This document shows positions 900 through 15,187 of a stretch of DNA of 64,000 bases, in pieces (the stretch's first letter is position 1; each line of letters opens with the position of its first letter). The position numbers were made by a program, and so were the translations under genes. Source of the DNA: Candidatus Hydrogenedentota bacterium (GTDB lineage Bacteria; Hydrogenedentota; Hydrogenedentia; Hydrogenedentales; SLHB01). The DNA lies in assembly GCA_045863335.1 (NCBI GenBank), contig BTVY01000001.1, forward strand, positions 32,001-96,000. The letters are read 5' to 3'. The notes beneath the pieces were generated by a model. The model searched no databases. It was not told the DNA's origin and saw only the letters and a program-made list of their open reading frames with translations.

Positions 900-2093
900 A
901 TGATTGAGAAACGCGATCTCGCCGACTTTGTGGACCACGCGTCCGACAGCGTGTTCATTACGGATGCCTCGGGCGCGATCGTCTACGTCAACACCGCGTG
1001 CGAACACATTTCCGGGTATGACCGCGGCGAATTGATGGGGCAGAATCCACGAATTTTCAAAAGCGGCAAGCATGACGAGGGGTTCTACGCGGAACTCTGG
1101 CAGACGATCCAGCGCGGCGACGTGTGGCGCGGCCGGCTTTTCAACCGCAGCAAGGATGGCTCGTATTTCGAAATTGAAGAAACCATCACGCCCATCCAGG
1201 GCTCCGATCTCGATCAGCGCTATTTCCTGAGCATCATGCGTCCGACCGACTCGACCGCCAAGGACATCGAGCGGTATTACACGGCGCAGAAGATGGAGGC
1301 TATCGGCGAACTCGCCGCAGGGATCGCGCACGAGATCAATACGCCGACACAGTATATCGGCGATAATCTTCAGTTCCTGGCCGAATCCTTCGAGAAACTG
1401 ATCCCGGTCCTGCGTCGCTACAGGGAGTCCCTCGCTGACGACTCGGGAGAGGGTTCAGAACACACCGATCCCGCGTTAACGGCGCGGGATCTCGACTTTC
1501 TGCTGGAAGAGATCCCGGGCGCCATCAAGGAATCGCGTGAAGGCAATCGCAAGGTTGCGGCCATCGTCCGCGCGGTGCGCGAGTTCGTTCATCCAGATCT
1601 CGAGGAGAAGCTCCCGGTCGAGATCAATCACTCCATCGAGAACACCATTGCGCTCGCGCGGAATGAGTGGAAGTACGTCGCCGAAGTGCAAACCGACTTC
1701 GATCCCGAGATCGCGGAAGTGCTCACGGTATCCGGCGCGTTGAATCAGGTCGTCTTGAATCTCCTCGTCAATGCCGCACAGGCCATCGGTGAAGCGCGCG
1801 AACAGGGGAACAAGGAAAAGGGCACGATTACCGTTTCGACACGACGGGTTGGCAAGGAACTGGAAATCGCCATACAGGACTCCGGCCCGGGCATCCCCGA
1901 GGCGATTCGGTCGCGCATCTTTGAGCCTTTCTTCACGACGAAGCGCCCCGGACGCGGCACGGGGCAGGGTCTCGCCATCGTGCGCGCACTCGTCGCGGAA
2001 CGCCTCGAAGGGACGCTCACATTCGAGTCTGAAATGGGACGGGGCACGACGTTCGCAGTGCGATTGCCGTATGAAACGGGTAAGAGAACGTAG
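900..2093 (+). CDS. PAS-domain sensor histidine kinase (cytoplasmic)
   Basis: N-terminal PAS (ITD..G.IVYVN, G.NPRIFKSG), H-box AAGIAHEINTP, N-box LNLLVNA, G boxes DSGPGI, FEPFFTTK, GTGQGL. Confidence 0.95.
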   Translation: MIEKRDLADFVDHASDSVFITDASGAIVYVNTACEHISGYDRGELMGQNPRIFKSGKHDEGFYAELWQTIQRGDVWRGRLFNRSKDGSYFEIEETITPIQGSDLDQRYFLSIMRPTDSTAKDIERYYTAQKMEAIGELAAGIAHEINTPTQYIGDNLQFLAESFEKLIPVLRRYRESLADDSGEGSEHTDPALTARDLDFLLEEIPGAIKESREGNRKVAAIVRAVREFVHPDLEEKLPVEINHSIENTIALARNEWKYVAEVQTDFDPEIAEVLTVSGALNQVVLNLLVNAAQAIGEAREQGNKEKGTITVSTRRVGKELEIAIQDSGPGIPEAIRSRIFEPFFTTKRPGRGTGQGLAIVRALVAERLEGTLTFESEMGRGTTFAVRLPYETGKRT

Positions 2094-2132
2094 GGAGACG
2101 CGCATGAAGCCGGACTCAAAGGGAGATCGTCC

Positions 2133-3251
2133 ATGGCAATAGGCCGCATGGCCCGCATCCTGTTCGTCGACGACGAACCGAACTTCCTTTCGGGCATCCG
2201 CCGGATGCTTTGGGATGACAGTTCGGAATGGGATCTCTTCTTTGCCGAAAGCGCGGACGAGGCGCTGAAGATCGCTTCGCAGAAGGTTCTCGACACGATT
2301 GTCTCCGACGTATCCATGCCAGGTAAGGATGGGCTTGAATTGCTGAAGGAACTGAAGGCCAATCCCGCGACCAATGCGATTCCCGTCGTCATTCTTACCG
2401 GGAACGCGGAAGCGCATCTGAAACGAAAAGCCCTCGATCTCGGCGCGGCCGATTTGCTGAACAAACCAATCGACCGGGAGGACCTGATCGCGCGTTTACG
2501 CAGCGTGCTTCGGCTCAAGCGCTATCAAGACGAACTTCGCGCGCACAATGAATTACTGGAGTTTCGCGTGCGCGAACGCACGCGGGAGCTGGAATCATCG
2601 CGCCGCGACATTATCTGGCGTCTCGCAAAAGCCGGCGAGTTCCGCGACGAGGATACCGGCGATCACGTGGTCCGCGTGGCCTTATCCAGCCGCATCCTGG
2701 CGGCGCAAATCGGCCTCGATCAGGAACTGGTCGAAACCGTGTTTCTGACGAGCCCGTTACATGACATCGGTAAAATTGGAATACCGGATGGAATTCTCCT
2801 GAAACCAGGCAAACTAACCGATGAAGAGCGTGCGCAGGTTCAGAAACATTGCGAGATTGGCGCCTCGATTCTCGTGGAGTTGCCTAAAGGCGCAGAGTAT
2901 TTCCTGAACAGCCAGGAGGACGGCGATCGCCTGCCCATACTCGAAGCCATCGAACCGATCCGGGAGTTTGCCGCGACGATCGCAATGACCCATCATGAGC
3001 GCTGGGACGGTACCGGGTATCCGAAAGGGCTCGGTGGCGACGAGATTCCGATCGTGGGGCGCATCGTGGCGGTCGCCGATCTCTACGATGCCTTGCGGTC
3101 TTCGCGTCCTTACAAGAAGGCCTTCGATCGCGCCAAGGCTACGCAGATCATGGAAGAGTCCGTCGGCACCCATATCGATCCCATGGTTTTTGACGCGTTT
3201 GTCCGGGTGCAAGACGAGGTGGAACAGATCCGCGAGGTCAATTTCCGATGA
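2133..3251 (+). CDS. Response regulator with HD-GYP cyclic-di-GMP phosphodiesterase domain
   Basis: REC (FVDDE, SDVSMP, KP) plus HDIGK, HHERWDGTGYP and RPYK motifs; alternative start at 2148. Confidence 0.95.
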   Translation: MAIGRMARILFVDDEPNFLSGIRRMLWDDSSEWDLFFAESADEALKIASQKVLDTIVSDVSMPGKDGLELLKELKANPATNAIPVVILTGNAEAHLKRKALDLGAADLLNKPIDREDLIARLRSVLRLKRYQDELRAHNELLEFRVRERTRELESSRRDIIWRLAKAGEFRDEDTGDHVVRVALSSRILAAQIGLDQELVETVFLTSPLHDIGKIGIPDGILLKPGKLTDEERAQVQKHCEIGASILVELPKGAEYFLNSQEDGDRLPILEAIEPIREFAATIAMTHHERWDGTGYPKGLGGDEIPIVGRIVAVADLYDALRSSRPYKKAFDRAKATQIMEESVGTHIDPMVFDAFVRVQDEVEQIREVNFR

Positions 3252-3270
3252 CGGAAAAAGGGATTTCCCA

Positions 3271-4485
3271 TTGAAGCGCGCCATATTTGTTGATGACGAG
3301 CCGAATCTGCTGCGCGGACTGCGCCGTATGCTTCTCAGCATCCGCCGCGATTGGGACATGACCTTCGTGGACAGCGGCGCCGAAGCGTTATCGCTCATGG
3401 ATGCCAACGGTCCCTACGATGTCGCCGTGACCGACTTGACCATGCCGGAAATGGACGGCATCGAATTCCTCACCGAAGTAACGAAACGATACCCGCAAAC
3501 CGTGCGCTTTATCTTGTCCGGTCAAACCGACACGTCGAGTTTACTGCGGGCCTCCACGGTCACGCATCAGTTCCTCACGAAACCTTGCGACCCTCAGGTG
3601 CTCCACAATCTCCTGGCCCGCGCATTTTCCTTGACCGATTCGTTGCAAGGCTCCCCCATCAAACGCACCCTGCTGGAGATGGGCGCGTTGCCGAGCATGC
3701 CGGTCATTCACCAGGAAATCGTCAATGAGATGCAATCGCCGTCGCCCTCCATCGCGCGCATCGGCGGCATCATCGAAAAAGACGCGGGCCTGAGCATGAA
3801 GCTCCTTCAAATCGTCAACGCGGAGTACGTGGGGACGGGCAAGCAGATTTCGAGCGTGGCCGAAGCGGTTCAACTTATGGGGCTGGAGAACATCAAGAGC
3901 CTTGTCCTCATGGTGGAGGTTTTCTCGCCCATGCAGGAACAGGATGTCGCCGGCGGGGTCAGCCTGGATTTCCTGTGGCACCGAAGCCTTGCCGTGGGCG
4001 ATTATGCCATGCGTATCGCGGAGTACGAAACCCACAACACGCCCGTCGCGCAGGAGTCCTTCACCGCGGGGTTGTTGCACAAGGTCGGAATGCTGATCCT
4101 GGCGACGAAGATGAGCAAGGAATTCGTGGAGGTCGTGGAGCAAGTCCGCAGCGGCGGCATCAGTCTGAGCGAGGCGGAGCGGGATCGGTTTGGCGCGACG
4201 CATGGCGAGATTGGCGGTTTTCTCTTCGACCTGTGGGGGCTTCCCGATGCGATCGTCAAGGCCGTCACCTACTACGATTATCCGTCCGCGCTGCCGGAAC
4301 AACTCTACGGCGGGGGCGATGGCAAGCAGTTCACGTCCTTAACCGCAGTGCACGTCGCCAACTATTTCTGCTCCGATCGCGAAGGCATGGGCGATTTCCT
4401 CGGCGGCGCCCACCTGGATTCGGATTACCTCAACCGCCTCGGTCTCGCGGAACACCTCGCGCGCTGGTTCGACCTCTGCGTGTAG
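3271..4485 (+). CDS. REC + HDOD domain signal-transduction protein
   Basis: Likely TTG start at 3271 (KRAIFVDDE); REC then HDOD (LPSMP, KLLQIVN, AGLLHKVG, THGEIG..L...WGLP). Confidence 0.88.
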   Translation: MKRAIFVDDEPNLLRGLRRMLLSIRRDWDMTFVDSGAEALSLMDANGPYDVAVTDLTMPEMDGIEFLTEVTKRYPQTVRFILSGQTDTSSLLRASTVTHQFLTKPCDPQVLHNLLARAFSLTDSLQGSPIKRTLLEMGALPSMPVIHQEIVNEMQSPSPSIARIGGIIEKDAGLSMKLLQIVNAEYVGTGKQISSVAEAVQLMGLENIKSLVLMVEVFSPMQEQDVAGGVSLDFLWHRSLAVGDYAMRIAEYETHNTPVAQESFTAGLLHKVGMLILATKMSKEFVEVVEQVRSGGISLSEAERDRFGATHGEIGGFLFDLWGLPDAIVKAVTYYDYPSALPEQLYGGGDGKQFTSLTAVHVANYFCSDREGMGDFLGGAHLDSDYLNRLGLAEHLARWFDLCV

Positions 4486-4542
4486 ACGGTCGTCGTTCAA
4501 GATTCATAGCGCAGACCGGCCTCGTTCGGCAATCGATCACCA

Positions 4543-4803
4543 TCACGACAATGGCGGAATCTTCTCAAAAGGCATGAATTTTTGTCCGAGATCCCAATCG
4601 GCAAGCAGCTCCTGCCGGTGCAGTGTTGCCCATTCACTGACCAAACCCATCGCCCGAGGAGGCAACGAACCAGCAAGAACGGCCAACGAACGAATCTCGA
4701 TTAAAGCTTCGTCATCCCCGTAGTATGCGTGGAAGTGAGGCGGATTGTGCTCGTTAAAGTACATTCGGATCACGATACCGTAGAAGCGGGAGATCTCAGG
4801 CAT
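4543..4803 (-). CDS. DUF4160 family protein (putative DhiT-like toxin)
   Basis: MPEISRFYGIVIRMYFNEHNPPHFHAYY signature. Confidence 0.9.
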   Translation of the reverse strand: MPEISRFYGIVIRMYFNEHNPPHFHAYYGDDEALIEIRSLAVLAGSLPPRAMGLVSEWATLHRQELLADWDLGQKFMPFEKIPPLS

Positions 4804-5083
4804 GGGCGTTTTCGCGATTCAGATTCGCGAATAATTCTTCCGGTTCCTTTCCTGTGGCCTCAAGGTAAAGGGCATCGGGACAAAGATCGAGACTGTCATC
4901 CCACTGGAGTTCGCCGGCTGGACCAATCTCCACCTGCCGAAATCGATCCTCATCGTTCCACTGCGCAAAGACCCCGCGGCCGACCAAGTGGGAGAGGTCA
5001 ACTTCGCCGGACTCTCCTGTGTCAAAGGTTAGCGCCAAACGGAAGTTTGGGAGAACTTTCACGTCCGTGATCTTTCGCATCAT
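4796..5083 (-). CDS. DUF2442 family protein (putative antitoxin partner)
   Basis: V..L..F.L.LTFDTGE.G.VDL...GVF...W....DLCPDALY signature; overlaps the DUF4160 gene by 8 nt. Confidence 0.88.
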   Translation of the reverse strand: MMRKITDVKVLPNFRLALTFDTGESGEVDLSHLVGRGVFAQWNDEDRFRQVEIGPAGELQWDDSLDLCPDALYLEATGKEPEELFANLNRENAHA

Positions 5084-5270
5084 ACGTCTCCAGTGATACC
5101 TGCCAGGTTCTTAAAAAGAAAGAACGCTCGCCTGACAACAGTATACCAAAGAAACCGCGTTCGGCCACGACTCGCAAACAAGTCGCAACCGTGTGTCGAT
5201 TTGTGCATCATAACTCCCCAGCCACTGCAACGACCCTCTGACAAACCCGTAGCTTACAGGAGCCAATTCA

Positions 5271-7067
5271 ATGCGACTGACCAACCTCGCGTTTTGCCTG
5301 GGTATCTTCACCATCTTCGCGACGAGTTCCTGCGCCACGTCCATGGAGCACAGCGTCTCCGGCTCGCTGACCAAGTGGTCGCCGGTCACGATCGACTTTC
5401 GCGGTCCGTTGGCAGCGGCGTCGGGCAGTGACCCGAATCCATTTCTCGATTACCGGCTGCAAGTCGAATTTACCGGTCCGAGCGGTGCGGAATACAGCGT
5501 GCCAGGCTACTTCGACGGCGACGGCCAGGGGGGTCTCAACGGCAACACGTGGCGCGTGATGTTCTCGCCGGATGAGACCGGCAAATGGAGCTACCAAGCG
5601 TCATTCCGGAGCGGCGACGACGTGGCCGTCGCGCTGGAACCGGATGCGGGCGAACCGGCTGCCTTCGATGGCGCGAAAGGATCCTTCGAAGTCGAACCGC
5701 AACCGGACGACGCCCCCGGTTTCTATCGTTGGGGACGGCTCGAATACGCGGGCGGCTTCTATCTGAAGTTTCGCGACGGAAACTATTGGATCAAAGGCGG
5801 CACGGACAGTCCCGAGGATTTTCTCGCCTACAACGGTTTCGTGAACACGCCGCGCCGGCCGCACCGGTATGATGCGCACATCGCCGATTGGCAGGACGGC
5901 GATCCCGACTGGGGCGATGGACATGGCAAAGGGATCATCGGCGCGTTGAATTATCTCGCCTCCATGCAGGTGAACAGCATCTACTTTCTTCCCATGAACA
6001 TCGGCGGTGACGGAAAGAACGTCTGGCCGTTCCTCGGTGAGCCGGATGCAGGCGGCAGCCCGGACAACGACAACGTTCACTACGATCTCGCGAAGCTGCG
6101 TCAATGGGGAATCGTGTTTGACCATGCACAGCGCAAAGGACTGATGCTGCACTTCGTCCTCAACGAGGCGGAAGAACCCAACAAACGCGAACTCGACGAC
6201 GGCGCGATCGGCGTCGAGCGCAAGTTGTACTATCGCGAACTCATCGCGCGCTTCGGCCACTTTCCCGCGCTGCAATGGAACCTCTGCGAAGAGTACAACC
6301 TTCGTTATCGTTTTGATCCGGAAGTGGTGAAGAGCTTCGCGCAGTACATTCGCGATGTCGATCCCTACGACCATCCAGTCACCGTCCACCACGCAGGCAA
6401 ATGGCAAGAGGCCTGGGGCCCGTTCCTTGGGGATGACCGCTTCCAGGTCACGTCGTTTCAAGTGAACGAACTGGACGTGGTCGAGGCGTGGCGGCAACAG
6501 TCGCGCGATGCCGGATTCCCGCAGGTCATTGGCATGGACGAGTTTTTCCCAGACAAGACGCACCCCGACAATATCGAGCGCCATCGCAAGGAATACCTCT
6601 GGCCCATTTACTTCTCCGGCGGCAACGTGGAATTCATCCTCGACGATCTCCTCAAGACGGAAGACTTCCGCCGCTACGAGGCCCTCTGGCAATACATGGC
6701 CCACGCGCGCGCCTTCATGGAAACCCACCTCCCCTTCTGGGACATGGAACCCCGCGACGACCTCCTCACCGGCGAATCGGAGTTCACCGGCGAAAACAAT
6801 GTCGTGCAAGGGCAAGTCTTCGCAAAAAGAGGTGACATTTACGCCGTGTACCTCCCAGTCGCCACCCAAACCGGCACGCTCGACCTCACGCGAGCCCCCG
6901 GTACCTTTCAGAAACTGTGGTTCAATCCTCGCACAGGTAACTCCGTAATCGATAAGCCCATCGAAGGCGGTAAGTTTCTGGCGCTGAATGGCCCGCCCGA
7001 TTCTTCGGGTGAAGACTGGGTCGTACTGGTGAGAAAAAGCCGCGAAGTGCTGACCCGACCACGCTAG
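5271..7067 (+). CDS. Secreted lipoprotein with DUF5060 N-terminus, glycoside-hydrolase-like TIM barrel and putative collagen-binding C-terminal domain
   Basis: Signal peptide with TSSC lipobox; NPFLDY..V.FTGPSG..V.GYFDG, W...FSPD..G.W.Y; WNLCEE; C-terminal WFNPRTG...DWV. Confidence 0.75.
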   Translation: MRLTNLAFCLGIFTIFATSSCATSMEHSVSGSLTKWSPVTIDFRGPLAAASGSDPNPFLDYRLQVEFTGPSGAEYSVPGYFDGDGQGGLNGNTWRVMFSPDETGKWSYQASFRSGDDVAVALEPDAGEPAAFDGAKGSFEVEPQPDDAPGFYRWGRLEYAGGFYLKFRDGNYWIKGGTDSPEDFLAYNGFVNTPRRPHRYDAHIADWQDGDPDWGDGHGKGIIGALNYLASMQVNSIYFLPMNIGGDGKNVWPFLGEPDAGGSPDNDNVHYDLAKLRQWGIVFDHAQRKGLMLHFVLNEAEEPNKRELDDGAIGVERKLYYRELIARFGHFPALQWNLCEEYNLRYRFDPEVVKSFAQYIRDVDPYDHPVTVHHAGKWQEAWGPFLGDDRFQVTSFQVNELDVVEAWRQQSRDAGFPQVIGMDEFFPDKTHPDNIERHRKEYLWPIYFSGGNVEFILDDLLKTEDFRRYEALWQYMAHARAFMETHLPFWDMEPRDDLLTGESEFTGENNVVQGQVFAKRGDIYAVYLPVATQTGTLDLTRAPGTFQKLWFNPRTGNSVIDKPIEGGKFLALNGPPDSSGEDWVVLVRKSREVLTRPR

Positions 7068-7202
7068 ATATCGTTTACATTTGGGTACTTGCGTGGTCGG
7101 ACTTTCCGAACTCCTACAAAAAATGAACGTGTACTGCACAGGACTATTCCGCTATAGTTCATTATCCGATATGATGAGCCTAGACACAGGGGAGTTTCTC
7201 GC

Positions 7203-9476
7203 ATGAAGCACGTGTTCATATCACATGCAGGAGCCGACAAAGAGATTGCGGAGAAGCTCTTTGAGGATTTGCGGAACGCTGGACACTCCACAGTAATCGA
7301 CATCCACGAGCTCCAACTTGGCAATGACCTCGTGGACTTTATTAACGATAGCATTACGGATGCCCACACGATCCTATTGTTATACTCTCGCCACACCCCC
7401 CAAGCCCGCTGGCAGAAGCTAGAGATCAACGCTGCCGTTTGGAACGAGGTCGAGCAGGACGGTGGAACTTGCATCGTCGTTCGCCTAGACGACACTGACG
7501 TACCTCCAACTCTTGGACCTAAAGTCATGGGGCGGTTGGAGACCGATAAACCTGAATCATACAAGACGCTTCTCGATCAACTCTGCGAAACACTTCTACC
7601 GAAAGAAACAGCTTCTTCAATTGTCGCCAAGGCATTCCGCAGCAACTCTCAAAACCCATTCCGCCGTGTTCGCGCTGAGTTCTTCGAAGATAGACCCGAC
7701 CTTCTTGCTGCAACCTTCGCCCCACCGGAGGCTCTCAAGGCGGGTGCTCTAGAGGAAATGAAGCCCTGCTTCCTAGAAGGATCTCGCGGTACGGGAAAGT
7801 CTATGTTGCTGCTATCCTTGCGAGCTCGCAACTATTTGGCAAGATACAAGCAGGTACCGGAGCGATTCTCGATATTTGGATTCTACCTGAAACTGACACG
7901 AGGCGCTCTGTGCAACGCGGGCCTTACCGTCGACGAAACTTCGTTGCTAGATTTCCCCGCTAGAGAACGAACACAGATTGTCGACATGTCATCACAAGAG
8001 ATCTATCTTTGCCTTCTTGAGAGCCTTATCTCCGAAATAGTTTTTTGCACTCGCGAAGCCACACTTGAACTGACTCCGTCCAAGGAGAAACTGATCGCGG
8101 ACGAGATCGCGGAGCTTTTAATACCCCACGAGGCCAATCGGCCAACCACCCTGGAGGAACTAGCCGATCTTCTGGCCCGCACCCATACTAGGATCGCCAG
8201 TTTTATGCGTGCGCGATTCGTCTACATGGAAGTGGGTCTAGCGCCAATAACGACTCTCGATTTGGAGTCATTCAAAAGGGCCCTGGATGCGATTCGCAAG
8301 CATATACCGCAACTTCAGGCATCGCTTTTTATCGCCCTACTGGACGAATATGAAAACCTCTTTGCTTATCAGCAACGTATCGTTAATGGAATAATAAAGC
8401 TTGCCACTCCATCGTTCTCTGTTAAAGCCGCCAAGAAACTTGGTAGTGACGATGTATCCGGCACCACGACCGGCCAAGAACTTCAAGAGACTCACGACTA
8501 CACGCGACTGATGTTGGTTTACGACGTAGAGCATTCTGAGCAACTAAGGCATTACAAAAACCTGCTCTCCACAATCGTTTCCAACCTCCTTCAGAGTGAG
8601 AATTGGCCCGCGCATAGTATTGATGCACTACTCCCAGAGGATCGCTCAATTGAAGTTGATGAGTCGAAATGGCTAGATGAAGTATCGCGTCTCTGCAAAG
8701 TGAACAAGGACGAGTTTTTGGCTTGGCCCGAGGAGCGTCGCAAAGAAAAACTAACCTACTATGGCGAAGCGGCAACTTATAGAGTTCTCTACGGCTCGAA
8801 GGGTCGCAGAAGACCTAAACGGTTCTGCGGCTTTCATGATATGGCATTCTTGAGTTCCGGCGTGATTCGCTATTTTCAAGAGTTCTTGGGTGTCAGTTTT
8901 CACATGCTCCAAGATGAGGAAACGCATGAGAAAGCGCTGTCAATTCCAGCGTCTATACAAACTAGAGCTATCCACCTAGTTTCGGAGCATAACCTTACTA
9001 CTCTAAGCCGAAATGTTGAACTGCATGGGGAAGTGCTCAAATACTTGCTTCTTGATATTGGAGATTGTCTGCGCCACAAGCTTCTAAAGCACGGGAGCGA
9101 ACCTGAGGCAGCGCGCATTGTACTCGTCGATCCTGAGAATCTGCATGATGAGAATATGGTCGCTCTACGCGAATTGATACTCGTCGGTGAGCGAGAAGGT
9201 GTGTTTCAAACCAAAGAAGGCCGACCAACGTACAAACCACGACACGGATCAGATCCGCAACCAGCTGAACTTCGACTCTGCCGAGTATTCGCCCCCGTCC
9301 TTGAGATAAGTCCTCGCTTGCGCTGGCGTACAGAGGTACGATGCGATCAACTTGCAGGGCTGCTCATTCCTGGGCTTCGCGGTCAGGCGGTTAGTAAATT
9401 GAAGAAGAGTATGGTACGCGAAGTTGGCGGCGGCGACCAGAGTGAGTTTCCACTTTCAAAGGAGATCAAGCGGTGA
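7203..9476 (+). CDS. TIR domain fused to an ORC/CDC6-like (STAND-related) P-loop ATPase; putative defence protein
   Basis: TIR (VFISHAGADK...WQKLEI with the conserved Glu), NPF..RAE, Walker A GSRGTGKS, Walker B LLDEYENL, SSGVIRYF; lower GC than flanks. Confidence 0.85.
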   Translation: MKHVFISHAGADKEIAEKLFEDLRNAGHSTVIDIHELQLGNDLVDFINDSITDAHTILLLYSRHTPQARWQKLEINAAVWNEVEQDGGTCIVVRLDDTDVPPTLGPKVMGRLETDKPESYKTLLDQLCETLLPKETASSIVAKAFRSNSQNPFRRVRAEFFEDRPDLLAATFAPPEALKAGALEEMKPCFLEGSRGTGKSMLLLSLRARNYLARYKQVPERFSIFGFYLKLTRGALCNAGLTVDETSLLDFPARERTQIVDMSSQEIYLCLLESLISEIVFCTREATLELTPSKEKLIADEIAELLIPHEANRPTTLEELADLLARTHTRIASFMRARFVYMEVGLAPITTLDLESFKRALDAIRKHIPQLQASLFIALLDEYENLFAYQQRIVNGIIKLATPSFSVKAAKKLGSDDVSGTTTGQELQETHDYTRLMLVYDVEHSEQLRHYKNLLSTIVSNLLQSENWPAHSIDALLPEDRSIEVDESKWLDEVSRLCKVNKDEFLAWPEERRKEKLTYYGEAATYRVLYGSKGRRRPKRFCGFHDMAFLSSGVIRYFQEFLGVSFHMLQDEETHEKALSIPASIQTRAIHLVSEHNLTTLSRNVELHGEVLKYLLLDIGDCLRHKLLKHGSEPEAARIVLVDPENLHDENMVALRELILVGEREGVFQTKEGRPTYKPRHGSDPQPAELRLCRVFAPVLEISPRLRWRTEVRCDQLAGLLIPGLRGQAVSKLKKSMVREVGGGDQSEFPLSKEIKR

Positions 9477-10417
9477 AAAGGCTCCTTCAAAGCGCCGAAC
9501 TTCCGACACATAGCGTATTGGTGACATGTTCGAGCCATGAAGATAGATGCCTCGCGTTTCTCTCCAGGATCAGTGATTGGAAACCCAAAATGGCGGTGGT
9601 ATTCCACTACGACGACGAGAACCCAAAACGTGAGAAGAATCATAGTTTGATGCTTGCCAAGCTCGAGGAAACGGATATACCCGCCCGCGAAGTAGTCTTC
9701 ACTGAACGAAGAATTGTTAAGAGCTTTCGAGAAAATACAAAACTTTTTCACGAGACACTTTTGCAGAGCGACGTACAGAACGTCGTTCTGGATATTTCTG
9801 TATTCACCAAGAGGCACTTACTCACCTTGCTTCAGTGGTTCGACGACCACAGCTTTTGGGACCATCTACACGTCGTTTACAGTGAGCCGGAAGAGTATAT
9901 CGTGTCCACCCATATACCGCTTTCCTTTGGCCTTTCGTCAATGCGACAGATACCGGGGTTTCCTGCCAGCCCAAATCTGAGCCGGCCACTTCATCTTGCC
10001 CTGTTCCTTGGATACGAAGGCGACCGTGCCCTTGCTGTACATGAGCATGTGCAACCTATGACCACCACAATGTTCATAGGCGACCCGCCATTCCGACCTG
10101 AGTGGCGGGGCAGGTCCGAACTCTTCAACCAAGAACTGATTGCAATAGTGGGTGAAGATCGCGTAAGAAATGTTGATTCTATCGACCCAATGAAGACCCT
10201 TGATGCCCTGATCCAGATTTTCGATACCGGATCGCACAGGAGCCCCTATTCTAGGGCAATCTCGCCGTTGGGTACTAAGCCTCAAACACTGGGAATATAT
10301 GAGTACTTGCGACAAACAGACGATGCACCGGCGGTTGTATATGCCAGTCCGCTTAGGCATAATCATCGATTCTCATCAAGGGGGTTCGGACCGACGTGGA
10401 CATTAAAGGGTGACTAA
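9473..10417 (+). CDS. Uncharacterised 314-aa protein, apparently two tandem CARF/DUF6293-like Rossmann units
   Basis: GTGA overlap with the upstream stop; internally duplicated motifs SSHEDRC/LGYEGDRA, LDISVFTK/ISPLGTK, VVYSEP/VVYASP. The CDS is secure; the fold is inferred. Confidence 0.7.
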   Translation: MKRLLQSAELPTHSVLVTCSSHEDRCLAFLSRISDWKPKMAVVFHYDDENPKREKNHSLMLAKLEETDIPAREVVFTERRIVKSFRENTKLFHETLLQSDVQNVVLDISVFTKRHLLTLLQWFDDHSFWDHLHVVYSEPEEYIVSTHIPLSFGLSSMRQIPGFPASPNLSRPLHLALFLGYEGDRALAVHEHVQPMTTTMFIGDPPFRPEWRGRSELFNQELIAIVGEDRVRNVDSIDPMKTLDALIQIFDTGSHRSPYSRAISPLGTKPQTLGIYEYLRQTDDAPAVVYASPLRHNHRFSSRGFGPTWTLKGD

Positions 10418-11600
10418 CGCAATGCCCCCTTCTCCATCGTATATTGATCGGTACCCCGCGAAGATGGTCCATCACTTGGCATCCAGGTTGATTGATTCCT
10501 ATGCGCGAAAGGCGACGAGGATTCTCGACCCGTTCTGCGGGTCCGGAGCTGTCTTAGTGGCTGCACAACGCAGAAGAATCCCCGCCTATGGGATAGATCT
10601 AAATCCAGTTGCGGGGCTGCTCACGCGAGTGAAACTTGAGGGATTTGACCAACGAGAGTTGGTTGGCCTCACTGAGAAACTGTTGGACTCAGCCGAGTCG
10701 GGTAAATCCTGTTTGCCCATGTCATTACCTAACAAATGCTACTGGTTTACCCCCGCAACTCTGGCCAAGATCGAGTCAATTCGTGGCGCCGCTTCCATTT
10801 CAGACCTTTGGAACTCGCGCGAGGGCAGGGCCTTGGTACTAGCGTTCGCACTAAGCATACGACTGTGTTCCAGGGCCGACCAGCGTAGTCCAAAGCCGTT
10901 TATCTCGAAACAAGCACGAAGCTCACGAGTGGGCCGACATTACGACCCATATACTATCATCAACAAAATCGTCGAGGAAATCTCCGATCACTATGGCGAA
11001 CAACGCCAAACAACAATGACAGCGTTCGGCAGGGGCGACATTGTATCCGACCGCAAATTGATAAGGTTTATGCCCGGCACCTCTCACGTGATCACATCGC
11101 CACCTTACATTAACGCTCAGGATTACTTCCGGAATTTCAAACTTGAATTGCACGCATTGGAAGGCGTATTGCCATTCCGAGTAGCAGAGCTTCGCGACCG
11201 ATTTATTGGTACTGAGCGCGGCGATTTACTCCGCCCAGTAACAAGCTTACGGATCTCGGAGAACATACGCATGCTCCCCGAACTTCCGGATCTCGCGAAG
11301 CGGAAGCCCAGACATGCTGCCATAATTCATCGTTATCTTTCGGATATGTACCATACTTTCAAACAGTTATCTTGCCACATGAACCGCAAATCAACGTTTG
11401 TGCTGGTGTGCGGTGATAACCTCGTGGGCGGAGTTCACATTGCCACCTGGCAATTGCTTGGATCGATGCTTGAGCAATTGGGCTACTGTCTGCAGGATCG
11501 CTTCGCCGATCCAATTATAGATCGGGTCCTTGCGCCAAAAAGGTGTGGCCATAAGGGACTAATCAAGGAGGAGGTCATCTCTGTCTTCGAAAGGTTCTGA
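10410..11600 (+). CDS. DNA methyltransferase, amino (N4-C/N6-A) type, alpha-class motif order
   Basis: YPAKM, SAM-binding LDPFCGSG..GIDLNP, catalytic TSPPY, VCGDN; 8-nt overlap with the upstream gene (alternative ATG at 10422). Confidence 0.9.
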   Translation: MTNAMPPSPSYIDRYPAKMVHHLASRLIDSYARKATRILDPFCGSGAVLVAAQRRRIPAYGIDLNPVAGLLTRVKLEGFDQRELVGLTEKLLDSAESGKSCLPMSLPNKCYWFTPATLAKIESIRGAASISDLWNSREGRALVLAFALSIRLCSRADQRSPKPFISKQARSSRVGRHYDPYTIINKIVEEISDHYGEQRQTTMTAFGRGDIVSDRKLIRFMPGTSHVITSPPYINAQDYFRNFKLELHALEGVLPFRVAELRDRFIGTERGDLLRPVTSLRISENIRMLPELPDLAKRKPRHAAIIHRYLSDMYHTFKQLSCHMNRKSTFVLVCGDNLVGGVHIATWQLLGSMLEQLGYCLQDRFADPIIDRVLAPKRCGHKGLIKEEVISVFERF

Positions 11601-11639
11601 GTCCGCAGCAATCGGCAATAGCGAATGTTTTTCCTTAGC

Positions 11640-11678
11640 GGGCGGCTCGCGCCGGTCTTGGTGCGAGCCGCCCCTTTG
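11640..11678. terminator. Hairpin terminator between convergent genes
   Basis: GGGCGGCTCGC...GCGAGCCGCCC stem followed by CTTT, between the stops at 11600 (+) and 11686 (-). Confidence 0.6.
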
Positions 11679-11685
11679 TATCCCT

Positions 11686-13122
11686 TCACGCCTCCTGCAC
11701 GACCTTGAAGCCCATAAGGTGGGCGAGGTCGTTGATGCTTTGGCTGTGGTCGCCGTAGAAGACGACGCGGTGGAGCAGAGTCATGGTATCGCTGCCGAGG
11801 AGGTCTGCGCCCCAGTTTTGGAACATGCTGCGAGCGTCGGCGACTTCGGTGACGAATTGCGTGCGGCACCCGAGTTCGTCGTGGGTCACGTCGATGATCT
11901 TGCCCGTGGACAACAGCATGGTGTCGAGATTGACGAACTTCGCGCAGGTGACCGGCTGGCCGATGCGGTTCTCCACGTCGAGCGAAACGCCCCGGTCGCT
12001 GTCGGTCTGGGTGCGGATGGTGAAGGGCAAGCGCTCGCCGTCCGGTCCGTCCATGCGCGTGGCGGACGTGCAGTGGAAGTGGATGAGCGCGTTGCGGGCC
12101 GTATCGAACACGGGATCCGTAATGAACCCCGGCACGCCAAAGGCGTAGCTGAACATCAACATGGTCAGCGTCGAATCCATGTCGCCTTCGCAAGCGCCGA
12201 CGAATCCCATGTCATTGAGTTTGCTGAACGCGAGACAGCCTTTCGCGGGTTCACCCATGCAATTGGAACTCGTAACGGCCTGCGCCCCGTGGGCAATCAT
12301 GAGTTCCTTCATGGCGAGGTAGAGCCGCGTCGCGTCGACGATTTCCTGCCGCGTGGGTTCAACGATGGCCTTGGCCTGGCCGAGCCAATAGGCTTCCGCC
12401 TCGGCCTCGGCAAGGGCCGGGTCGACCGCGTCAAACGCGGCAATCGTATCCTCCACCGTGATAGGAATCATCTCGGCGCCCCACCGCTCTTTGAGTTGCG
12501 CGCCGTCGCAGGCAGCCGGCGTACCCATAGGGCCGCGCACGACGAGGATCTTCGTGTTCCGCATGCGCGACGGCACCCGCATGAGCGCGGCAACCCGGTC
12601 GATCTCGCTCCAGTCACTGGACGGAATCGAAACCACCTTTTTGCCTTCCTTTTGCCAGAGCGGGAAGTACATCCAGCCGTGGCCGCTGAAGGGTTGCGAG
12701 AACACGGCCGTGGGCAGGCCCGCGGCGACGATCTGTTCCATGGCTTCCCGTGGCGCGCCGCCGCCGTGGCCGGACAGGTGAAACATGAGCACGCCATCGG
12801 CCTTCGGGAGCTGCTCCAGTACGGCGGGCAATTCATCCGGCGGCACCAGTTGGCCGCCCACGAATTTCACGTCGCCCAAGCGGGTTTCCAGATCCGCGAG
12901 GTAAGCCTTGAACTTGTTGATCTCTTCGGTCGGACGGGAAAGATAGATGTCGCCGGTGCGGCCGATGAACACGGAATGGATGTTGATCAGTTCGGGCTTG
13001 GGCCAACGGTCGTCGTCGAAGGCGACGGTCCGTGCGTAGCTCTTCATCTGCGATGCGAGCAATACGCCCCCGGCCACACTGCATCCCAGGAATTGCCGCC
13101 GGCTCACGCAAGAAGAACACAT
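11686..13122 (-). CDS. Tat-exported L-fucose/L-arabinose isomerase-like protein
   Basis: ATG at 13122 after GGAGGT; twin-Arg SRRQFL; C-terminal ACEGD, PGFITDP, HCT, CRTQ and HRVVFYGD motifs of the fucose-isomerase-like fold. Confidence 0.75.
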   Translation of the reverse strand: MCSSCVSRRQFLGCSVAGGVLLASQMKSYARTVAFDDDRWPKPELINIHSVFIGRTGDIYLSRPTEEINKFKAYLADLETRLGDVKFVGGQLVPPDELPAVLEQLPKADGVLMFHLSGHGGGAPREAMEQIVAAGLPTAVFSQPFSGHGWMYFPLWQKEGKKVVSIPSSDWSEIDRVAALMRVPSRMRNTKILVVRGPMGTPAACDGAQLKERWGAEMIPITVEDTIAAFDAVDPALAEAEAEAYWLGQAKAIVEPTRQEIVDATRLYLAMKELMIAHGAQAVTSSNCMGEPAKGCLAFSKLNDMGFVGACEGDMDSTLTMLMFSYAFGVPGFITDPVFDTARNALIHFHCTSATRMDGPDGERLPFTIRTQTDSDRGVSLDVENRIGQPVTCAKFVNLDTMLLSTGKIIDVTHDELGCRTQFVTEVADARSMFQNWGADLLGSDTMTLLHRVVFYGDHSQSINDLAHLMGFKVVQEA

Positions 13123-13314
13123 GGGTACCTCCTTGGGCCGAGGCAAGTCCCCCGGCCCCGTATCCACCAGAGATCATCCGATGAAAACAAGGTCCCCGTT
13201 CCGGCAGAGCACACAGACAGAGCGAGCGTTCGGCCGCCCCATCCCCCGTTTCCGGGACGACTCATGGTGGGAGAAAATCGGCGGGTGGATCGCACCACCC
13301 TCCCCCGTGGGTTT

Positions 13315-13343
13315 AGTCTAGCCCTTTCCGCCGGATCTGGCAA
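13315..13343 (-). promoter_or_regulatory. Putative sigma70 promoter for the Tat isomerase-like gene
   Basis: On the minus strand: TTGCCA, 17 nt, TAGACT. Confidence 0.5.
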
Positions 13344-13475
13344 GGGCATTCCAACGCGGGGCAATCGCTCCAAGACTTCCAAATGCTTCGGCGTGGGAAT
13401 TCATCTGCGAACGCGGAAGGCATAGAAACTGAAAAGATGGCCCCCCATTCGCGAGGGTGACGGGGTAGTGCTTCC

Positions 13476-13562
13476 TGTAGCGCCCGGTTTCCATGCCGGG
13501 CGAGATTCACATCCGCTAATTCACGGAGAAACAACGCCCGCCATGGAAGGCGGGACGCTACA
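13476..13562. repeat. REP-like inverted doublet (GTAG-type)
   Basis: TGTAGCGCCCGGTTTCCATGCCGGGCG, spacer, then CGCCCGCCATGGAAGGCGGGACGCTACA in inverted orientation, just downstream of the SSS gene. Confidence 0.65.
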
Positions 13563-13594
13563 GATTGTCCTATGCTGATTTCTGCCACGGGTTG

Positions 13595-15187
13595 CTAAAC
13601 CAGCGGCGTTCGGTCCTGGGTCCAGACGGTCAGGTTGGTGAGGTCGCGGGGTTTGCGCGGCAGAAGCAGGCCCATCGCGTAACCCGCGATAAACATGACG
13701 ATATGGCCGATCACGCCGGTGTAATACACGTCGATGGGCAGGCGCAGACTCTCCGGAATGCGGAGCCACTCGGGCAGCGCGGTGTCATACTGGATGAACG
13801 TCATGTAGGCGGACCAGAGCACGGTGCATCCGATCGCGATGCCCACGCTGCGGGCGTCGCCGATCCGCGTGAGGAATCCGAGCAGGTAAAGGCCCAGCAG
13901 CCCGCCCGCGATGATGGAACTGATGATCAATCCGGTTTCGGCGATCGTCTTGCTTTCCGAAACGAGGAATACCCAGGCGCCGCCGATCATCATCACCGAT
14001 GCCGCGATGCCGATCCACCGCGCCACGGAGAGGTAATGCTTGTCGTCCCGGTGCTTCACGAGATGGCGGCGGTACACGTCGACCACGCTGACCGTGGCAA
14101 TGGCGTTGATGCTGGAATCCAGGGAAGACATGGCCGCGGCAAAGATCGCGGCGAGTACAATGCCGGTCAGCCCCGCGGGCAGTTTCTGGCTGATGAAGTA
14201 CGGCAGGATCTCCTCTGCTTTGCGCGCGCCGGTCAACATGCCATCGGCGGCGGAGTCGGGGTGCGCCTGATAGTACACATAGAAGGCTGTGCCCAGGAAG
14301 TAGAAGAAGATCCACATCCCAAGACTTGCGATGCAACTGACGAACAGGGCCTTCCGGGCTTCGTGCATGTTGGCCGATGCGCAATAGCGTTGCACGACGT
14401 TCTGGTTGCACGCGTACTCTGCCATGAAATGGGTTAGCCCCACGAAGAAGATCATCAGCGCGGTCTTCTCGCTGAGGCTAAAGGTCCAGGAGGCCTGCCG
14501 CAACGAACCGTCCGGCATAAGCTCTCGGAACGCGAGCTTGTCATGCGCCAGCCCGACCGAAACAATCTCGCCAAATCCGCCCGGCAACGCCTGGACGACC
14601 GCGACGAGACACAGCACGGCCCCCACGGCCAGCACGATGGTCTGGACCACGTCGGTCCAGACCACCGCCTCGATGCCTCCCGCCACGGTATAGAAGGCGA
14701 CAAACACGCCGCATAGGAGAATGCAGATCGTCGGATCGAGCCCCGTGACCGTGGCGAACATGAGTGCGAGCAGATACAGGACCATCGCGAGCCGCGTGAC
14801 CTGGGATATGAGAAAGGCCAGGGCGCCGTAGAGGCGCGTGGACGGGCCAAACCGCGCTTCCAGATACTCAAAGGCCGATGTGACTTTGCCGCGCCGGTAG
14901 AAGGGAAGAAAGAGGTAGGCGCCCGCAAACACCGCCAGGGGGAATCCGAGACTGAACGCGAATCGAATCCACGAGGTCTTGTACGAGTCCGCGGGAATTC
15001 CAAGAAAAGAGTTGGAACTGATGGACGTTCCTACCAGGGAAATGCCGATGGCCCAACCGGGAAAGGCGCGGTTTCCCAGGAAGTATTCTTCCGTGCTGGT
15101 GTTGCGCCGGGCGAAATAGACACCGGCATACGCCATGCCCGCGAAGTACAGGACCATGACCAAATAGTCGATCCAGGAAACGCCCAC
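13595..15187 (-). CDS. Sodium:solute symporter (SSS) family transporter
   Basis: Many transmembrane segments; EEYFLG.R, SAFEYLEARFG, GGIEAVVWTD, QNVVQRY, AAAMSSLDS. Confidence 0.95.
   Translation of the reverse strand: MGVSWIDYLVMVLYFAGMAYAGVYFARRNTSTEEYFLGNRAFPGWAIGISLVGTSISSNSFLGIPADSYKTSWIRFAFSLGFPLAVFAGAYLFLPFYRRGKVTSAFEYLEARFGPSTRLYGALAFLISQVTRLAMVLYLLALMFATVTGLDPTICILLCGVFVAFYTVAGGIEAVVWTDVVQTIVLAVGAVLCLVAVVQALPGGFGEIVSVGLAHDKLAFRELMPDGSLRQASWTFSLSEKTALMIFFVGLTHFMAEYACNQNVVQRYCASANMHEARKALFVSCIASLGMWIFFYFLGTAFYVYYQAHPDSAADGMLTGARKAEEILPYFISQKLPAGLTGIVLAAIFAAAMSSLDSSINAIATVSVVDVYRRHLVKHRDDKHYLSVARWIGIAASVMMIGGAWVFLVSESKTIAETGLIISSIIAGGLLGLYLLGFLTRIGDARSVGIAIGCTVLWSAYMTFIQYDTALPEWLRIPESLRLPIDVYYTGVIGHIVMFIAGYAMGLLLPRKPRDLTNLTVWTQDRTPLV

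Follow-up and report, generated by a model that had tools for sequence, protein, structure and literature searches.

Several described systems share parts with the locus analyzed here. As set out in the available portion of PMC12839542, bacteriophage exclusion (BREX) and BREX-related systems pair ATPases of the ORC/Cdc6 clade with methylases and have no classical nuclease, and in other predicted systems ORC-CDC6-like ATPases are viewed as sensors of DNA from selfish elements (bioRxiv 10.64898/2026.10.19.760177, in the part of the text available). Already in 2014, a 'distinctive AAA+ ATPase' with an Arg in its P-loop was reported in a fusion with a Zn ribbon, a protein kinase, CARF and wHTH (PMC4012209, available part), and a link of this kind between kinase, ATPase and CARF is also indicated by the PADLOC model name 'CARF6--CARF_STK_AAA'. 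Here we describe a three-gene cassette in a stretch of 64,000 nucleotides (the window) of a Candidatus Hydrogenedentota bacterium (contig BTVY01000001.1, positions 32,001 to 96,000). It encodes a TIR-ATPase (gene 1), a tandem CARF-like protein (gene 2) and a DNA methyltransferase (gene 3), and it belongs, as a genuine and intact member, to a family that is widespread, catalogued and unnamed, of which the form with the TIR effector is the new part. A preliminary description, made from the letters of the sequence, had proposed a new anti-phage system and a check against PADLOC. That the combination is unnamed stands, as neither PADLOC 2.0 nor NCBIfam 20 holds a named or system-level model for the trio; 'new' was too strong a word, since the PADLOC CARF6 models, Pfam PF24389 and the kinase-AAA+-CARF fusion of 2014 (PMC4012209, same part) exist.

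An alignment of gene 2 homologs was searched against one genome per species, which gave 36 loci, and the open reading frames (ORFs) of these loci were scanned with the three proteins of the window. The loci come from Acidobacteriota (several orders), Latescibacterota, Verrucomicrobiota, Nitrospirales and Planctomycetota, with further hosts in Spirochaetia, Methanoregula, another Methanobacteriota archaeon and Nitrosopumilaceae. Matches in the order ATPase, CARF-like protein, methylase were found in 33 of the 36, spanning at least eight phyla of bacteria and archaea; among the remaining three, one has a fragment of the CARF-like gene and a fragment of the methylase gene, and two have the ATPase and the CARF-like protein without a methylase. 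The ATPase gene lies directly 5' of the CARF-like gene in 34 loci, and a co-oriented methylase gene directly 3' of it likewise in 34 (with only fragments in L016 and L036). A TIR domain was found by phmmer in 30 of the 36 loci, and by Pfam in L034 in addition.

Intact trios (single ORFs of the expected length) are present in 24 loci and in the window. Across these 25 trios, the matrices of pairwise identity computed for each protein are strongly correlated (r = 0.95, 0.96 and 0.92), and in none of the three comparisons did any of 999 label permutations attain the observed value; related genomes are not independent, so that these correlations show joint inheritance and transfer and not strict co-evolution. 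No fourth gene is shared across the loci beyond close relatives. The three genes are inherited as a unit. The preliminary description had made its proposal hinge on conserved co-occurrence of the methyltransferase with the other two genes, and this co-occurrence was seen both in the 33 loci and in the co-divergence of the proteins.

The same description had read gene 1 as a TIR domain with its conserved Glu fused to an intact P-loop ATPase of ORC/CDC6-like type (GSRGTGKS, LLDEYE), gene 2 as a tandem CARF-like protein, and gene 3 as an orphan amino-methyltransferase (DPFCGSG, SPPY); domain searches agree with each of these calls (Table 1 gives the coordinates). In gene 1, Pfam identifies TIR_2 (E 1.8e-20) and the ORC-CDC6-like family PF24389 (E 1.3e-54). 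Residue E74, within W70-x-x-x-E74, aligns to the conserved Glu of the W-x-x-x-E-L motif in the solved bacterial TIR proteins 7uxr, 4c7m and 4lzp, and we take this Glu to be the catalytic residue. The family profile matches the AbTIR NADase 8g83 (E 8.6e-6), and the TIR part of the ATPase profile matches the CRISPR-associated Cat1 (E 9.6e-5). With the fold family and the conserved Glu both present, the TIR domain of gene 1 is predicted to hydrolyze NAD+; it also gave weak matches to ThsB models, below cut-offs, in the Pfam, PADLOC and NCBIfam scans.

The ATPase part is conserved as well. E74 (28 orthologs), Walker A (G193-S200) and Walker B (L379-L386) are kept in at least 95% of 28-32 orthologs, and among 31 ATPases that include kinase-fused, HD-CE-linked and effector-less ones, G193, R195, G196, G198, K199 and D381 show no variation. 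A P-loop with an internal Arg (GxRGxGK[ST]) is found in all 31 aligned ATPases. Gene 1 has 313 homologs at E<=1e-3; among the 120 homologs listed, 113 have both TIR_2 and PF24389, and 7 (559-713 aa) have PF24389 only. A sequence search of the PDB with the ATPase profile returned TIR chains only, with no ORC/Cdc6 chain at E<=1.

Gene 2 matches ten PADLOC 'CARF6--CARF_CARF_CARF' models (best PDLC01917, E 3.6e-27, residues 12-302), with no Pfam family above threshold and no NCBIfam match. It consists of two lobes (N, residues ~9-157; C, residues ~168-308), whose profiles are homologous to each other (hhalign probability 96%, E 4.7e-9, 138 columns), so that the protein is an internal duplication. 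The superfamily of CARF-like proteins to which it belongs is large, with 1744 representative clusters (50% identity) at E<=1e-3 and 592 at E<=1e-10. The CARF signature has two elements, [DN]X[ST]XXX[RK], which follows strand 4, and a polar S/T, which follows strand 1 (PMC4012209, in the part available). In the N-lobe, D107-I-S-V-F-T-K113 and C19-S-S-H-E23 fit this signature when the strand positions are assumed, and the C-lobe retains T268-K269 of it without the D/N. Among 26 close homologs, D107, S109, T112 and K113 do not vary, D107 is at least 90% conserved across 93 diverse members, and several polar residues and CARF-like motifs of gene 2 are kept in at least 95% of 28-32 orthologs. Sub-threshold matches to Pfam CARF families were observed among the 93 diverse members (HFX_2341_N in 29, best 1.3e-6; CARF_Card1 in 10, best 1.6e-4; Csa3_N in 2), and sequence searches of the PDB with the gene 2 profiles gave no meaningful match. 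These data support a CARF fold, which is Rossmann-like with six strands, for gene 2 and do not demonstrate it. HFX_2341, a haloarchaeal cas repressor, was followed as a mechanistic lead for gene 2 and gave none.

Gene 3 matches N6_N4_Mtase in Pfam (E 4.6e-10) and, over its full length, MTase_II in PADLOC (E 1.9e-26). Motif I precedes motif IV, and both are kept in at least 95% of 32 orthologs. The region of motif I weakly resembles RNA m2G methyltransferases (UPF0020, E 3.4e-4), and UPF0020 is the top match in a kinase-type relative. We rejected a type II restriction-modification system as the identity of the cassette: no nuclease domain was found in the three proteins or in the window neighbors scanned, in agreement with the preliminary description, which had seen no restriction endonuclease.

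The family is modular. We surveyed 135 genomes of the window's phylum and a sample of 401 Acidobacteriota genomes. In the former, the CARF-like family was found in 4 genomes and PF24389 in 6; full-length PF24389 ATPases occur in exactly the 4 genomes with the CARF-like family, adjacent to it in all four, and the other two genomes have weak partial PF24389 matches and no CARF-like match. All four cassettes contain a DNA methyltransferase, of N6/N4 type three times and of C5 type once, and their effectors are TIR, a kinase (twice) and HD-CE. Two unrelated methyltransferase families in one slot argue that DNA methylation itself is needed. Among the Acidobacteriota, 9 genomes have the CARF-like family, and six further loci from this phylum (G186 was left out) were typed using purpose-built hidden Markov models (Table 1). 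In the Nitrosopumilus locus, the N-terminus of the ATPase aligns to the TIR region with the Glu missing and without a Pfam TIR match, and an AlwI-like endonuclease and a C5 methylase adjoin the ATPase and CARF-like pair in place of the cassette's own methylase. The pair of ATPase and CARF-like protein is thus the constant core, the effector is interchangeable, and the methylase is usual and not universal. Effector swaps at the N-terminus of the ATPase, which had been predicted beforehand, do exist, with a kinase, HD-CE or no effector in place of TIR.

Table 1. Positions of cassette features and of features in related loci, and gene composition of typed cassettes (positions are those of the window or of the named locus; gene order as listed).
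Sequence	Feature	Position	Strand	Description
Window	Gene 1	7203-9476	+	TIR + ORC-CDC6-like AAA+ ATPase, 757 aa
Window	Gene 2	9473-10417	+	Tandem CARF-like protein, 314 aa
Window	Gene 3	10410-11600	+	DNA methyltransferase, 396 aa
Window	TIR domain	7212-7568	+	Gene 1 residues 4-122; E74 codon 7422-7424
Window	ORC-CDC6-like ATPase region	7653-9323	+	Gene 1 residues 151-707
Window	Walker A GSRGTGKS	7779-7802	+	Gene 1 residues 193-200
Window	Walker B LLDEYE	8337-8354	+	Gene 1 residues 379-384
Window	N-lobe motif D107-I-S-V-F-T-K113	9791-9811	+	Gene 2; fits CARF signature
Window	Motif I DPFCGSG	10527-10547	+	Gene 3 residues 40-46
Window	Motif IV SPPY	11097-11108	+	Gene 3 residues 230-233
Window	Inserted cassette	7068-11640		Between stop of DUF5060 gene and retained terminator hairpin
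Window	GC-rich terminator-like hairpin	11640-11673	+	Common to cassette and converging downstream gene
Window	DUF4160 + DUF2442 gene pair	4543-5083	-	Overlapping genes
Window	Cassette			TIR-ATPase, CARF, N6/N4-type methylase
L051, L052	Cassette			N6/N4-type methylase, kinase-ATPase (Pkinase fusion), CARF
L050	Cassette			C5 methylase, HD-CE (separate gene), ATPase, CARF
L070	Cassette			HD-CE (separate gene), ATPase, CARF, C5 methylase
L071, L072	Cassette			Methylase, kinase-ATPase (Pkinase fusion), CARF
L069	Cassette			Weak methylase match, ATPase, CARF
L074	Cassette			ATPase, CARF; no methylase detected with the seeds used
L073	Cassette			CARF beside 737-aa protein; no match to ATPase model
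L035 (Nitrosopumilus)	Gene pair and neighbors	5762-7960, 9156-12014		ATPase with non-TIR N-terminus + CARF-like, beside AlwI-like endonuclease and C5 methylase
L034 (Nitrosopumilaceae)	Gene pair			TIR-ATPase + CARF-like, then serpin
L028 (Spirochaetia)	PglX-like gene before cassette	2111-5761		
L029 (Spirochaetia)	Gene before cassette	2072-5746		
L023 (Planctomicrobium)	BrxL gene before cassette	3168-5627		
L006	Transposase in TIR-ATPase gene	5614-6563		
L015	Transposase in TIR-ATPase gene	~5220-6659		
L026	Transposase in TIR-ATPase gene	5275-7033		
L008	Insert in TIR-ATPase gene	5642-6991		1.35 kb, no Pfam match
L012	Transposase between genes	6334-7815		Between ATPase and CARF-like genes
L016	Locus without ATPase gene	1048-7743		Same metagenome-assembled genome as L036
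L036	Locus without ATPase gene	1306-7729		Same metagenome-assembled genome as L016
L044 (G005)	492-aa gene at cassette site	4667-6145		Opposite strand

The cassette (~4.6 kb, about 7068 to 11640) was acquired at an intergenic place that varies between genomes, because a genome of the same genus (G004) has an empty site and another (G005) has an unrelated gene there. In G004, 169 bp separate the two flanking genes, and a homologous GC-rich hairpin is present at the empty site, which makes the hairpin at the 3' end of the cassette older than the insertion. The gene found at this place in G005 makes the site a recurrent variable spot. The CARF-like gene was found in none of the 40 related genomes searched (five of them of the same genus), and the source genome has one PF24389 gene. 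No direct or inverted flanking repeats or att-like sites were found at the cassette ends, and neither the 72,556 plasmid records nor the 50,697 phage records searched contained a match.

The local sequence shows the compact unit that the preliminary description had outlined. Its three co-oriented, overlapping genes were borne out as ORFs at both junctions: genes 1 and 2 overlap by 4 nt (GTGA, 9473-9476) and genes 2 and 3 by GTGACTAA (10410-10417). AGGAG lies 9 nt upstream of the gene 2 start, and a second in-frame ATG of gene 3 is at 10422. The lower GC content that had been noted is also real, with 0.47-0.53 over 7001-11500 as compared to 0.57-0.64 in the flanks. The flanks had further been taken for host sugar-enzyme genes, which we could follow in part: the left neighbor has DUF5060 and Collagen_bind_2 domains, and the right neighbor (493 aa) is without a Pfam match, with an SSF symporter gene next to it. 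Except for the hairpin shared with the downstream gene, a scan for promoters and terminators gave counts not above those in shuffled sequence. No Cas10 or CD-NTase messenger synthase was found within window positions 2995-15187 (the genome beyond was not searched). Two genes upstream of the cassette there is a toxin-antitoxin-like overlapping pair (DUF4160 and DUF2442); G005 has ~44 bp instead of this stretch, and in G004 the stretch aligns only partly.

Among 51 nearest-neighbor proteins of the loci that were scanned, 13 are of defense type (in 9 loci) and 5 are mobile-element genes; the rest are housekeeping proteins or have no assignment. The defense-type neighbors include a type I S subunit (HsdS), PglX-like, BrxL, GmrSD, ThsA_Macro, an ABC-3C component, Schlafen/AlbA_2, DUF499, Eco57I-like and other large methylases, and a STAND-like giant; the mobile-element neighbors are rve, IS66, portal, DUF2924 and RepB. 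In two Spirochaetia loci, the cassette starts no more than 3 nt from the end of a 1217-1225-aa gene, which in L028 is PglX-like (DUF7008, Eco57I and MmeI_Mtase) and in L029 was grouped with that of L028 by BLAST clustering; GmrSD lies 3' of the cassette in L028. In the Planctomicrobium locus (L023), the cassette follows BrxL. In these three cases, the cassette appears to lie inside a BREX locus or to be added onto one.

Disruption of the cassette is asymmetric. The TIR-ATPase gene is broken by transposase genes in three loci and by an insert in a fourth, and a transposase gene separates the ATPase and CARF-like genes in a fifth (Table 1). No insertion elements were detected in the CARF-like or methylase genes of the loci; frameshift-type breaks occur in CARF-like or methylase genes of L013 and L027. 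The asymmetry of the insertions suggests selection against the effector gene, as is expected if the TIR-ATPase is a costly, potentially lethal component. A separate observation concerns the two contigs of one metagenome-assembled genome in which the ATPase gene is missing. In L016, the CARF-like gene comes after a 2232-aa STAND-like ORF (NPHP3_N, AAA_16) and is followed by a 1047-aa N6_Mtase gene; in L036, a fragment of the CARF-like gene comes after a split STAND-like ORF. Both have methylase fragments only, and represent either a decayed cassette or a different architecture.

With moderate confidence, we read the cassette as one variant, with TIR as its effector, of a conflict system that is modular, moves horizontally and is most likely directed against phages. 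Its inheritance as a unit, its acquisition, the intact motifs of all three proteins, the modularity of the family, the defense-type neighbors and the repeated disruption of the effector gene speak for this. How it might work is a more tentative matter. The methylase would mark host DNA, and the ATPase, with the CARF-like subunit and possibly the methylase, would detect DNA without the mark, as BrxC, an ATPase of the ORC/Cdc6 clade, and the methylase BrxX/PglX do in BREX; the ATPase would then oligomerize and gather its N-terminal TIR domains, and the assembled TIR domains would hydrolyze NAD+, so that the infection is aborted. In such a scheme, the tandem CARF-like protein may be a pseudo-dimeric sensor of a small ligand that gates or resets the ATPase. 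The logic would be BREX-like with an abortive-infection output, the cell being killed by destruction of NAD+ instead of DNA cutting; we draw this analogy because of the pairing of ATPase and methylase in BREX (PMC12839542, available portion) and the view, cited above, of ORC-CDC6-like ATPases as sensors of selfish DNA. The preliminary description had proposed that the ATPase senses unmodified DNA or inhibition of the methyltransferase; this is plausible as a putative sensing step.

Five points weigh against this reading. A BREX-like logic leaves the CARF-like protein without a necessary role. Methylation is not universally required, as seen from the two-gene versions without a detected methylase (L034, L035 and L074). 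The name of the ORC/Cdc6 clade comes to the ATPase from a single source, the Pfam family PF24389. An RNA substrate for the gene 3 methylase is conceivable, given the weak motif I similarity described above. Finally, we found no published description of a system of TIR, ATPase, CARF and methylase in a search that did not extend to Makarova et al. 2020, Nicastro et al. 2023 and supplements (e.g. that of PMC4012209), and either of the two papers may depict the cassette.

The first of these points would be met if the cassette responded to a danger signal derived from the methylome, with methylated nucleotides or oligonucleotides from a phage-degraded chromosome binding the CARF-like sensor and switching on the ATPase-TIR protein, and with non-self DNA never inspected. 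We consider this unlikely overall, while it gives the CARF-like sensor and the methylase a joint role, accounts for the missing nuclease and agrees with the CARF ligand-pocket signature retained in the N-lobe. It has a precedent in PUA-Cal-HAD, which is activated by Dam-derived m6-dAMP after phage-induced degradation of the chromosome (bioRxiv 10.64898/2026.01.15.699771, in the part available). A 643-aa database protein (P0288), in which the C-terminal two thirds of the CARF-like protein are joined to an N6_N4 methylase, hints at physical coupling; however, it is a single case, and since the two genes overlap, a frameshift or an error in gene calling may have produced it. Against this reading, pairs of CARF-like protein and ATPase exist without a methylase; it would also predict co-variation between the CARF pocket and the type of methylase, for which two C5-type cassettes are at hand. 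We give slightly less credence to a particular form of this idea, a 'bring-your-own-mark' alarm, in which the cassette would place a private methyl mark and the CARF-like receptor of released methylated nucleotides would license destruction of NAD+ by the ATPase-TIR protein.

The mobility and patchiness of the family (none of 40 relatives, 4 of 135 genomes in the window's phylum and 9 of 401 Acidobacteriota genomes) would also suit a selfish addiction or exclusion module, in which the ATPase-TIR protein kills cells that lose the mark and so stabilizes the cassette, with phage defense a side effect at most. Repeated breakage of the effector gene with survival of the methylase points the same way, as it recalls R genes in restriction-modification pairs; but the cassette has no match on the plasmid or phage records, defense genes are often its neighbors, and addiction and defense are compatible, and we regard this explanation as distinctly improbable. 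Even less probable is Thoeris-like signaling, in which TIR would make a messenger derived from ADP-ribose and the CARF-like protein would receive it. Bacterial TIR domains can make signals, the ThsB models match weakly, and CARF domains bind nucleotide messengers (PMC4012209, available part); however, the CARF-like protein here is without an effector domain, the cassette has no ThsA-type partner, and the sister cassettes keep the CARF-like protein with a kinase or HD-CE at the place of TIR, which makes TIR an occupant of the effector slot and not the signal-maker. As for mere chance, i.e. an orphan housekeeping methylase beside an unrelated two-gene module, the two-gene forms without a methylase could be taken to support it, but it is effectively refuted by a methylase that is adjacent and co-oriented in 34 of the 36 loci, whose genomic contexts are unrelated, overlaps gene 2 and co-diverges with its partners.

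The components and their linkage will not surprise specialists, and the biology is directly testable. If the cassette is a defense system, it would unite epigenetic self-marking, as in restriction-modification and BREX, with abortive infection by NAD+ depletion, as in TIR systems, and CARF-type sensors would gain a role beyond signaling in CRISPR and CBASS. It could reveal how a system that has no nuclease reads the methylation state of DNA, or methylated nucleotides. As the family is widespread with swappable effectors, characterization of one member would annotate thousands of 'hypothetical' genes. If the alarm reading should prove true, CARF-type sensors would read an epigenetic danger signal instead of a synthesized second messenger, and the sister cassettes with kinase and HD-CE would belong to one large family of methylome-gated abortive-infection systems.

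The names under which parts of the family are catalogued lead back to a small literature. The label 'CARF6' presumably comes from the CARF classification of Makarova et al. 2020, and adjacent Pfam accession numbers make us suspect that PF24389 stems from Nicastro et al. 2023. The ending '-CE' in the Pfam names HD-CE and PRTase-CE means 'conflict effector', which can be traced to Nicastro et al. 2023 through a reference in the available part of bioRxiv 10.64898/2026.01.15.699771. In the literature searched, 'PRTase-CE' appears only as a Pfam label in a retron survey, and no experimental test of the CARF6/PF24389 cassette family was found.

Compared with described systems, the cassette shares with BREX and the DUF499-DUF1156 systems an ATPase assigned to the ORC/Cdc6 clade and a methylase that would mark self, and no classical nuclease (PMC12839542, available portion). 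It differs from BREX by having no PglZ, BrxA/B or BrxL and no detected homology of its ATPase to BrxC, and by having TIR and the CARF-like protein instead; where BREX genes adjoin it (L023, L028 and L029), the cassette is a separate unit. Membership in BREX was rejected, as none of the proteins of the cassette, to which this search was confined, has a PglZ or BrxC domain. With Thoeris it has in common a bacterial TIR domain with sub-threshold ThsB matches; here too membership was rejected, with no ThsA (SIR2 or Macro/SLOG) in the cassette and TIR fused to the ATPase. In Cat1 (CARF-TIR) and TIR-SAVED, a nucleotide sensor of CARF/SAVED kind controls a TIR NADase, as is predicted here. In those systems, sensor and TIR form one protein activated by messengers from Cas10 or CD-NTase, whereas in the cassette they are separate and linked via the AAA+ ATPase, a methylase is present, and there is no messenger synthase within. 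TIR-STAND, Avs and NLR-like proteins likewise have an N-terminal TIR on an oligomerizing P-loop switch ATPase (AAA_16, NACHT and NPHP3_N similarities are weak), but these are single-gene sensors with C-terminal repeats or domains that bind phage proteins, whereas the cassette ATPase is always accompanied by a CARF-like protein and mostly by a methylase. Closest are the unnamed CARF6/PF24389 cassettes, with which our cassette shares the ATPase with Arg in the P-loop, the tandem CARF-like partner encoded directly downstream and the adjacent DNA methylase, and from which it differs by its N-terminal TIR effector and its gene order of ATPase, CARF-like protein and methylase.

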